A stretch of DNA of 32,000 bases. It comes from Candidatus Jordarchaeales archaeon. GTDB taxonomy: Archaea > Asgardarchaeota > Jordiarchaeia > Jordiarchaeales > Freyrarchaeaceae. Positions 29,419-31,756 of this stretch are shown piece after piece (within the stretch, counting starts at the first letter, position 1; each line of letters opens with the position of its first letter). A program made the position numbers and the translations under genes. The notes beneath the pieces were generated by a model. It did not search any database, was not told where the DNA came from, and worked only from the letters and a program-made list of their open reading frames with translations. The stretch spans positions 854,499 to 886,498 of the forward strand of contig JAWAHN010000001.1 in assembly GCA_038889235.1 (NCBI GenBank). Direction: 5' to 3'.

Positions 29419-29469
29419 AAATTAGAGAAGAAAGGTAGTACTAGACCAGTAAAAGGAGGACACTGAACA

Positions 29470-30430
29470 ATGTTTGTTAAGCAAATGAATATTAGGGAAA
29501 AAATGAGTGCTCTAGAAATTATAGAGGAAATGGAGAAGGCGGGGGTTTTCATAGCGGGGCGTCTTGCAAAAGCGGTTAACGTGCTCGCGGAAATGATCGG
29601 TGATGACGAAGTAACAGTATTTTTTCGGAGCGGCAGGGGCTTTGGTTCCTGCTGGACTTGGAAGGATAATAGCAGAAATGATCTATGAAGGTTTCGTCGA
29701 TGTAGTTGTAACTACCGGGGCGAACATAACCCATGACTTGATAGAAGCCTTTGGCGGGAGACATAAAAGAGGACTGCGCGGAAGAGATGAAGATCTAAGA
29801 GATCAGGGAATCAGCCGCATATTTGATGCTTACATTTCAGATGACGCATTTGTCCTTTTCGAAAAAAGAATTCAGGAAATTCTGAAGGATATACCTTTTG
29901 AGAGAAGGAAGCAGGGGATACCTGTTTACGAGTTAATTAAGGAAATAGGATTACGTTTGGACTATAAGTACTCGTTTGTAAGGGCGGCCGCCGAAACCGG
30001 GATCCCCATTTTTTGTCCAGCGATAACTGACTCGATTCTAGGACTGCAAATGTGGCTTTTTTCTCAAACGAGCGCATTGAAGCTGGATGTGCTGGAAGAC
30101 CTTCACAAAATAATAAATATAGCATACGACGCAAAAAAATCGGGGGCGTTCTTCCTGGGGGGTGGTGTACCGAAAAACCACATTTTGCAGGCCATGTTGA
30201 TAACGGGCAAAGGCTTTAATTACGCAGTTCAGATAACGCTTGACAGACCGGAGACTGGGGGGTTAAGCGGAGCGACACTAAATGAAGCAAAATCTTGGGG
30301 TAAAATTGCTAAAGACGCTGTAACTGTTGATGTGATAGCGGATGTAACAATAACACTTCCTTTGATATTTTCAGCGCTCAAGGAAAAGCTGGGAGGAAAT
30401 ATCTCGCGGAAAGGAAGAAAAGTGATTTAA
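29470..30430 (+). CDS. dys: Deoxyhypusine synthase, split by a +1 frameshift at 29620-29626
   Basis: ORF 29470-29688 (AGRLAKAVNVL..M...TVFF) joins ORF 29642-30430 (GAAGALVPAG, VTTGANITHDLIE, FCPAITDS, GGGVPKNH, LSGATLNEAKSWGK) if one T of TTTTTT is skipped. Confidence 0.92.
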
Positions 30431-30436
30431 AGGTTC

Positions 30437-31756
30437 TCAGGGAAAGTGCCAAGGGTTAACCAGCGTTTTTGGAGGAGTGTTTATTTTGTTTATGCGACTG
30501 TACGGTCTTGTCAGGTGGCGTTGAGCTCTAGGTGGGGGGATGTATAGGGATTCACTTAAATTGCGGTTTAATGTAACGACTATTTTTTCAGCGAAAAATT
30601 TTTCTCCACATTTTTTACACTTAAAGCCTTGTCCTTTCCCAGCGGATGAAGCTCTTTTCCCGCAGCGCGGACAGAAAGGATTAAATGTTTTTACCAGGGG
30701 AGCCAGCTTGACTATCTCTATTTTTTCTATGTTTAATGTTTGGGGGTGAAGGGGAGAGGGGGGGCGAATGCCCCCGTAAATTCGGACAATGTCTCCCGGA
30801 ATTAGGTCTAGTACGACCTTTCTGAAATCTCCTGTCGGCTCGTATGCAGCACAATTTATTTCTCCCGTTTCGTCCCGTACTTTAAAATAGACATGCCCTC
30901 CCTGGGCTATTACAGGCTTGGATGACACTACACCTTCAATCACCGCAGACATGTAAGGGCGAAGTTCATTTACCTTGCGTTTAACACACAAGTGAGCGTC
31001 AGTTCCTTGATTCGAACGGAAGATAACCCACCGCTCTATCGGCTCGTAAACCTTTACGATAGCATGTGCCTTTAACAAAATTTCTGGGGATTCACCACGT
31101 ATCCCGTAGAGGACAGGGTCTGGGCCATGTGGTGTTATGAGAATGCGGTCTCCGTCGATGTTGTTAAACGTGTTAGGTTTCGTTAATCGATCCATCTCCC
31201 TTACCGACTCAGCGTCTACCTTTCTCGGTTTCCCCCAATTTTCAGGCTTCCTATATGTGATTAACTCGTAAGTATGGTCCCCCTCCAACTTTTCACCAAT
31301 AGCTGCAAGGGCTCCTATAATTCCACGCCCTTCACTCTTGAATGTATGAATTTCAACACCACATCTTTCAGCCGTTCGTAGGGCATCATTTAAATCAACC
31401 ACGTCGTGTAAAGCTTTCTCCGATAAATTCTTGAGTTCTGATGGAACTTCTCCAAGCAAAAAAGCAACACCCGGCTCTGTTTCGGTAGAAGAAAGGTCGG
31501 CAAGACGGCGCACTTCTTTTAGAACAAGCTCTTTAACCTTTTCAATGTTTTCTCTTTCAACGTCAAGTCTCAAGCAAACACAGCCGTTCCCTCTCGTCTT
31601 AAAAGGGATGTTTGGGTTCAATCTTATAAGAAGAGGATAATCCACAAACTTGACCCCAAACTTTGAAAGATGCTCAACTAAAACAGCACAAATATAAGTC
31701 GTGCATCCCCCCCTAAGAGAGTCCGTATCGTCGAACCCTACATGAAGCAGAACCAT
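30437..31756 (-). CDS. tiaS: tRNA(Ile2) agmatinylcytidine synthetase
   Basis: HVGFDDTDS..GGCTTY, LIRLNPNIPFKTRGNG, GRGIIGALAA, PHGPDPVLYGIRG, SNQGTDAH, AAYEPT, CPRCG...CKKC. Confidence 0.97.
   Translation of the reverse strand: MVLLHVGFDDTDSLRGGCTTYICAVLVEHLSKFGVKFVDYPLLIRLNPNIPFKTRGNGCVCLRLDVERENIEKVKELVLKEVRRLADLSSTETEPGVAFLLGEVPSELKNLSEKALHDVVDLNDALRTAERCGVEIHTFKSEGRGIIGALAAIGEKLEGDHTYELITYRKPENWGKPRKVDAESVREMDRLTKPNTFNNIDGDRILITPHGPDPVLYGIRGESPEILLKAHAIVKVYEPIERWVIFRSNQGTDAHLCVKRKVNELRPYMSAVIEGVVSSKPVIAQGGHVYFKVRDETGEINCAAYEPTGDFRKVVLDLIPGDIVRIYGGIRPPSPLHPQTLNIEKIEIVKLAPLVKTFNPFCPRCGKRASSAGKGQGFKCKKCGEKFFAEKIVVTLNRNLSESLYIPPPRAQRHLTRPYSRINKINTPPKTLVNPWHFP

Follow-up and report, generated by a model that had tools for sequence, protein, structure and literature searches.

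The window analyzed here, a 32,000-nucleotide stretch of DNA, belongs to an uncultured member of the Jordarchaeales (Asgard archaea) whose genome is represented by 2.14 Mb in 8 contigs and is 95% complete. The gene in this window that encodes deoxyhypusine synthase (dhs) is split in two at a run of six T residues (T6, positions 29620-29625). A Shine-Dalgarno-like AGGAGG that can be read from the sequence at 29454-29459 (+ strand) lies 10 nt 5' of the dhs ATG at 29470, and from this ATG the N-terminal part of the gene extends in frame 0 for 52 codons to Val-Phe-Phe (29470-29625, + strand) and aligns with the N-termini of intact orthologues. Frame 0 reads GTA ACA GTA TTT TTT CGG at the break and then extends past it for 20 out-of-frame codons, the first of which is CGG, before reaching a TGA at 29686-29688 (extension 29626-29688, + strand). 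Termination there would give a product of 72 aa, which we refer to as ORF1. The main part of dhs lies in the +1 frame (29624-30430, + strand), where it reads TTC GGA GCG GCA GGG GCT TTG GTT CCT from 29624 (Phe-Gly-Ala-Ala-Gly and onward) and is open to the stop codon TAA at 30428-30430. The +1 frame is shut upstream by TAA 29612-29614, so with this stop and the frame-0 stop at 29686-29688, dhs has no single continuous reading frame.

The 5' neighbor of dhs is a FAD amine oxidase-family gene (PF01593; 28129-29418, + strand) that precedes it by 51 nt in the same orientation, and the 3' neighbor is a converging tiaS gene, which encodes agmatidine synthase (30437-31756, - strand). Both neighbors relate to amine or agmatine chemistry, and the neighborhood is identical in other assemblies of the same species.

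Between them, the two frames specify a complete enzyme. The +1 part by itself matches the Pfam DS family (PF01916) with a score of 298.9 bits, compared to a cut-off of 27, and the match across both frames scores 302.6 bits and covers profile positions 4-287, which is to say the whole domain. When TTTC is taken as one step, the read-through product is 319 aa in length and aligns with its orthologues without a gap. Gly53, Gly56, and Ala57 are invariant in this alignment, and Gly53 is located directly 3' of the shift junction. The Gly-rich NAD loop that follows strand 1 is encoded in the +1 frame, along with GGGVPK and SWGK, the latter of which we take to be the catalytic-Lys motif. An earlier reading of this DNA, made from the sequence alone, had described the frame-0 sequence, its stop, the +1 continuation, and the integrity of GGGVPK and SWGK in the downstream half; the description of the frames is accurate in every detail, and both motifs are indeed present. 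The +1 part contains no further stops or frame breaks, and we found no other lesion in dhs.

The candidate +1 shift site is UUU_UUU_CGG (29620-29628, + strand). It includes the UUU_C tetranucleotide that allows for re-pairing of tRNA-Phe on UUC: the P-site codon would be UUU 29623-29625, the re-pairing codon UUC 29624-29626, and the A-site codon CGG 29626-29628. The predicted peptide across the +1 junction is ...EVTVFFGAAGALVPAGLGR, and the predicted tryptic peptide for termination in frame 0 is ...EVTVFFR. An enzyme assembled from two separately translated polypeptides was considered and rejected. The first start codon in the +1 frame after the shift site is TTG 29642, and the invariant GAAGA loop precedes it, being encoded only between the shift site and this codon. 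Therefore, only a ribosome that crosses from one frame to the other can encode the loop. A BHB micro-intron at dhs was rejected as well, because the read-through product is collinear with its orthologues without gaps and the excision of 3n+1 nt would delete conserved residues.

Distribution of the frame break in assemblies and relatives

The sequencing runs that carry this stretch are hot-spring metagenomes. None of those listed is recorded as RNA, and the approximately 3% of one metatranscriptome run that was read contained no reads on the stretch. Logan contigs from three runs and two studies contain T6 within a gapless stretch, at depths of 90 (the likely source), 26 (an independent study), and 5 (a third sample). 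ORF1, which is possible only with the frameshift, has been called on 11 contigs, including at least four NCBI MAGs and two Logan assemblies. The six loci that we retrieved are 99.6-100% identical to the window, represent two haplotypes, and have T6 in every case. Two A/G SNPs, at 29462 and 29920, separate the haplotypes among the assemblies, with G being found in the depth-26 and depth-5 Logan contigs. SNP 29462 sits between the Shine-Dalgarno-like sequence and the dhs ATG, and SNP 29920 turns an Ile codon (ATA) of the dhs +1 frame into a Met codon (ATG).

When 1.19 Mb of the congener genome G003 was compared with the source genome, approximately 18 split candidates were obtained from 1140 orthologous ORF queries. 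The split candidates that were checked are mainly genes of dispensable types: TnpB, a 1264-aa Ig-like surface protein, radical SAM, a geranylgeranyl-reductase paralogue, and hypotheticals. The exception is a NiFe-hydrogenase large-subunit-like gene that is broken without a homopolymer. This NiFe-hydrogenase/Complex1_49kDa large-subunit gene (C1:548858-550011) occupies two frames, with a gap of approximately 54 nt from one matching part to the other that may represent a micro-intron. Frame breaks that are specific to the source genome with respect to G003 were found at C2:427633, C1:920013, C3:274730, and C3:344509, in nucleotide runs of G5, C6, C6, and A7. They affect the TnpB gene, the radical SAM gene, the gene for the 1264-aa Ig-like surface protein, and a hypothetical gene, and have the appearance of common homopolymer pseudogenes or of variable genes.

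Given that T6 recurs in all 11 contigs, which derive from independent assemblies and from two studies, reach depths of 90 and 26, and represent two SNP haplotypes, and that the assembly is otherwise clean, with its few split candidates mostly in dispensable-type genes, a sequencing or assembly artefact at the homopolymer, which the sequence-only reading had put forward as an alternative and which would suit a one-base difference in a T run and runs whose library type is not on record, is very unlikely. The break is not unique to one assembly, and the T6 insertion in dhs is genuine DNA that is fixed in the species.

The picture outside of the species is different. DHS without internal stops is found in 39 of 41 Asgard relatives, and the remaining two, for which there was no match, are only 76-83% complete. 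The gene is in frame in four congeners, in five metagenome loci, and in family- and order-level relatives. Congener dhs genes read GTG TTT TTC GGA (G003), GTG TTT CTC GGT, or GTT TTT TTT GGA at the site, all of them in frame, and the family-level relatives read ACC TTC CTT GGA, likewise in frame. The source dhs has one T more than that of G003. The insertion is a derived, species-specific event that pre-dates only the 0.1-0.4% divergence found within the species. Thus, the conservation in sister taxa that the sequence-only reading had proposed to look for is absent, every relative being in frame, and because the site is unconserved, comparative genomics cannot show selection for it.

We found no sign of decay in dhs. 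A search for a second dhs paralogue, as had been suggested, returned a single PF01916 match in the 95%-complete genome. The gene for aIF5A is intact in the source genome, with the GKHG hypusine loop present. The dN/dS ratio for pairs of dhs genes that include the source genome is 0.05-0.064, which is the same as for pairs of intact genes, although this test is insensitive to inactivation younger than approximately 0.4% divergence. With a single lesion, a dN/dS ratio like that of its intact relatives, and no second copy, dhs does not have the characteristics of a decaying pseudogene.

Mevalonate kinase and the properties of UUU_CGG

The source genome contains a second gene with this type of break. 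Its mevalonate kinase gene (mvk, C1:609900-610857) begins ATG GTT GTA GCG TCA GCG CCG GGT AAA GTG ATA TTA TTT CGG TGA and resumes in the +1 frame as FGEHAVVYGE..., for a total of 306 codons; the predicted +1 junction peptide is ...VILFGEHAVVYGEPALVIAVDK. The break, which has the form GKVI(L/F) TTT CGG TGA, is present in 9 of the 10 Jordarchaeales genomes searched, the carriers being all four genus members, the family-level genome, and four of the five order-level genomes. The T run is T3 in the genus members (TTA TTT CGG) and the family-level genome. The order-level sequence is ATT TTT TTT CGG TGA, in which the UUU_UUU_CGG nonamer is identical to the dhs site. Within one order-level genus, the mvk run is T8 and frameshifted in four genomes and T7 and in frame in one, G009. 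Among the Asgard genomes searched outside of the Jordarchaeales, mvk is in frame in every one.

Upstream of the mvk site, the differences between genomes fall on the third positions of frame-0 codons (GCG/GCA/GCT/GCC, CCG/CCT/CCA/CCC, and GGT/GGC/GGA/GGG), indicating that frame 0 is translated up to the site. Downstream of it, no conserved structure was found (consensus -7.7 kcal/mol, with almost no covariation). Comparison across the order thus provides strong evidence that Jordarchaeales ribosomes move one base forward at UUU_CGG in the essential gene mvk, passing from Phe to a codon for Gly. The conservation of this UUU_CGG junction makes +1 decoding at dhs credible in the same organism.

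The A-site codon at both sites is rare. CGG is the second-rarest sense codon in the source genome, with a frequency of 3.37 per 1000 codons in 1155 long ORFs, and the UUU_CGN architecture with a rare A-site codon that had been proposed for dhs is thus borne out by the codon count. A gene for tRNA-Arg(CCG) is present on contig C6, which counts against a shift at dhs. Only 12-14 tRNA genes, many of which bear introns, are detectable in the 95%-complete genome with aragorn or Rfam RF00005, and one of the calls (C3:113954-115379) has an intron of 1333 nt. No credible case of a tRNA with an enlarged anticodon loop was found among the 12-14 detectable genes. With respect to the wyosine pathway, the loss of which was considered as a source of slipperiness in tRNA-Phe, Taw1 is present in the source genome and TYW3 was not found.

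The sequence-only reading had drawn attention to a hairpin downstream of the dhs shift site as a possible frameshift signal. The hairpin itself is exactly as had been claimed, with a 10-bp stem that includes three G-U pairs and a UUUG loop (29631-29654, + strand), and its energy is -18.3 kcal/mol (z = -3.2 relative to dinucleotide shuffles). The proposed function did not hold up. In two relatives with an intact dhs, G003 (-14.5) and G010 (-15.9), the sequence folds into a stem of this shape too, and the mvk site has no conserved structure. We therefore rejected the hairpin as a specific stimulator; it is probably incidental and appears to be a by-product of coding for GAAGALVPAG.

We also asked how the source genome treats UUU_CGG elsewhere. 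In-frame TTT_CGG pairs are observed 15 times versus 25 expected, and the resulting ratio of 0.6 equals that of the non-slippery TTC_CGG. Since TTT_CGG is not specifically avoided, a generic UUU_CGG is probably a low-efficiency site. A genome-wide scan of ORF topology for +1 sites revealed no enrichment of TTTCGG over control hexamers. The other TTTCGG +1 candidates that were inspected turned out to be ordinary gene starts or antisense frames and were rejected, and only mvk and dhs stand. Within the dhs genes of the genus there are 10-14 homopolymers of at least 5 nt, several of them longer than the run at the shift site, and an indel that struck one of the homopolymers at random would add a base to the shift-site run in only approximately 4-5% of cases.

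Interpretation of the dhs frame break

We consider it reasonably probable that expression of dhs proceeds through a +1 ribosomal frameshift, at a site that is young and was acquired recently. The insertion of one base in a T5 run converted TTT TTC GGA (Phe-Phe-Gly) to TTT TTT CGG A. According to the proposed mechanism, while peptidyl-tRNA-Phe occupies UUU 29623-29625 as the P-site codon, decoding of CGG, a rare Arg codon, would be slow in the A site, tRNA-Phe would re-pair one base forward on UUC, and Gly-tRNA would then read GGA, such that translation would go on in the +1 frame. The T6 mutation could have become fixed since it is located on a site that ribosomes could cross, with DHS still being made by the +1 shift. 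We hold this view because the site resembles the mvk signal, because an insertion at precisely this position would be a low-chance event, because CGG is rare, and because T6 has been retained in all 11 contigs although reversion of T6 to T5 is easy. Furthermore, with the UUU_CGG step conserved across the order in mvk, ribosomes of this lineage are evidently capable of it. The state of the DNA, its fixation, its lack in relatives, the intact rest of dhs, and the conserved mvk site are shown, whereas a ribosomal shift at the dhs site, and how efficient it would be, are inferred. The dhs site is then a species-specific second instance after mvk, without secondary refinement in the form of an immediate frame-0 stop or a specific RNA structure.

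The proposed step has counterparts in several known systems. +1 shifting at UUU_CGN is known from influenza PA-X (PMC3498833) and from amalgaviruses (PMC5052127). As in influenza A PA-X (UCC_UUU_CGU) and the Amalgaviridae, a C follows the P-site UUU at the dhs site and allows tRNA-Phe to re-pair to UUC, and the A site has a rare CGN codon (PMC3498833, PMC5052127), and in those systems, too, a downstream structure is not obligatory. Unlike dhs, they involve viral mRNAs, eukaryotic ribosomes, an efficiency of approximately 1%, and an accessory product, whereas the archaeal chromosomal dhs would need the shift for its only functional product and has an unconserved site. The mvk site of the Jordarchaeales (UUU_CGG_UGA) is found in the same organism, and there, too, the UUU_CGG step leads from Phe to GGN (Gly). 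In contrast to mvk, in which the site is conserved across the order and UGA comes right after CGG, the dhs site is present in one species only and is followed by 20 frame-0 codons before the stop. Re-pairing in the P site while a slow A-site codon waits is likewise a feature of the hungry-codon shift of yeast Ty1 (CUU_AGG_C) and of antizyme, both of which have connections with polyamines and eIF5A (PMC10855120). Ty1 differs from dhs in its slippery and hungry codons, and antizyme differs in shifting at a stop codon, in having a pseudoknot, and in its proven polyamine sensing.

Among cellular archaeal genes, Saccharolobus solfataricus fucA1 is the only one for which expression by frameshifting has been shown experimentally (PMC1616953, PMC8211752). 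Like dhs, fucA1 is an archaeal chromosomal gene consisting of two ORFs, yields a full-length enzyme by recoding, and is strain- or lineage-restricted. Unlike dhs, it uses a -1 shift on A_AAA_AAT, and its product is a non-essential glycosidase. We found no demonstration of a +1 programmed frameshift in a cellular archaeal gene in the open-access literature searched, a 2021 review giving only the -1 shift of fucA1 (PMC8211752). Likewise, the open-access literature yielded no report on frameshifting in Asgard archaea or on frameshifts in dhs or mvk, and Antonov et al. (2013) make no mention of mvk, dhs, or CGG.

It is also possible, though in our judgment rather unlikely, that dhs has recently been inactivated, which was the other alternative named in the sequence-only reading. 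A replication slip in the T5 run would have killed the gene and been fixed by drift or hitch-hiking in a near-clonal hot-spring population, leaving a young pseudogene in an organism that lives without (deoxy)hypusination or on residual read-through that was never selected. The break is species-specific, and strains with T6 differ from one another by only 0.1-0.4%, which is too little time for further decay, and a gene that had lost its function only recently would present the same picture; however, dhs is a single-copy gene that is near-universal in Asgard relatives, and the substrate of its product, aIF5A, is intact. The other homopolymer frame breaks in the same genome, in the G5, C6, C6, and A7 runs, show that such lesions occur, but they affect genes of dispensable types. 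The shift signal itself is an ambiguous witness. UUU_CGG arises automatically when a T is added to the ancestral TTT TTC GGA, in-frame TTT_CGG is not specifically avoided, and dhs lacks a stop such as the UGA that directly follows CGG in mvk, all of which limit the frameshift reading; yet the break occurred in one of 10-14 homopolymers and there created exactly the shift signal that is conserved in mvk across the order. The persistence of T6 in the face of easy reversion also argues against inactivation.

A special case of the +1 frameshifting that we favor is a selected shift that serves as a regulatory sensor, as the sequence-only reading had envisaged. Jordarchaeales ribosomes would use UUU_CGG before Gly as a +1 signal, and this species would have recruited the signal into its sole dhs gene as a feedback sensor for the hypusine pathway, with the shift responding to polyamines, hypusinated aIF5A, or the supply of Arg-tRNA(CCG). 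The hungry codon specifies arginine, which supplies the synthesis of agmatine and polyamines, and the T6 allele has been kept when it could easily have reverted. Moreover, the +1 shifts of OAZ1 and Ty1 in yeast depend on hypusinated eIF5A (PMC10855120), so that DHS might conceivably be linked to its own frameshift, and polyamines are sensed by antizyme (PMC8211752). We nevertheless regard a sensor as doubtful. The site is unconserved beyond one species and has neither a dedicated stimulator nor an adjacent frame-0 stop, and the features of an antizyme-like site are lacking: the A site contains CGG instead of a stop codon, and the hairpin is shared with intact relatives. In addition, the yeast data predict positive rather than homeostatic feedback.

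Finally, the reading frame could be restored at the level of RNA or DNA, either by RNA polymerase slipping on T6 to give some U5 transcripts or by phase variation of the tract, with T5 in a minority of the population. We judge such correction to be improbable. The site is a homopolymer, but efficient slippage by cellular RNA polymerases usually needs runs of about 8-9, and the T6 of dhs falls below this length. The mvk run does vary in one order-level genus, between T8 and T7, but the mvk site of the source genus is only T3, so slippage cannot explain mvk. A minority T5 would not show in Logan contigs, which lose rare variants; still, none of the 11 contigs has a length variant. Essential genes of endosymbionts provide a precedent of a kind, in that their frameshift mutations are rescued by polymerase slippage at poly(A) tracts. 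As would be the case for dhs, the cell there copes with a genuine frameshift in a gene that it needs because some of the products are corrected; unlike dhs and mvk, with just T6 and T3, endosymbiont rescue is transcriptional and takes place on long A runs.

Thus, +1 ribosomal frameshifting remains the explanation of the dhs break that we favor, and we found no earlier report of a frameshift site in dhs. If this reading is true, then a young recoding site, in dhs, exists beside an ancient one, in mvk, within one genome, and the enzyme that activates aIF5A is linked to frameshift-dependent expression, while the yeast counterpart of that factor itself influences +1 frameshifting. Annotation pipelines call both dhs and mvk as fragments in these genomes, which would wrongly suggest that the hypusination and mevalonate pathways are missing. 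If dhs is read by a +1 shift, then UUU_CGN, a motif of eukaryote viruses, would also work on the ribosomes of the archaea that are closest to eukaryotes.
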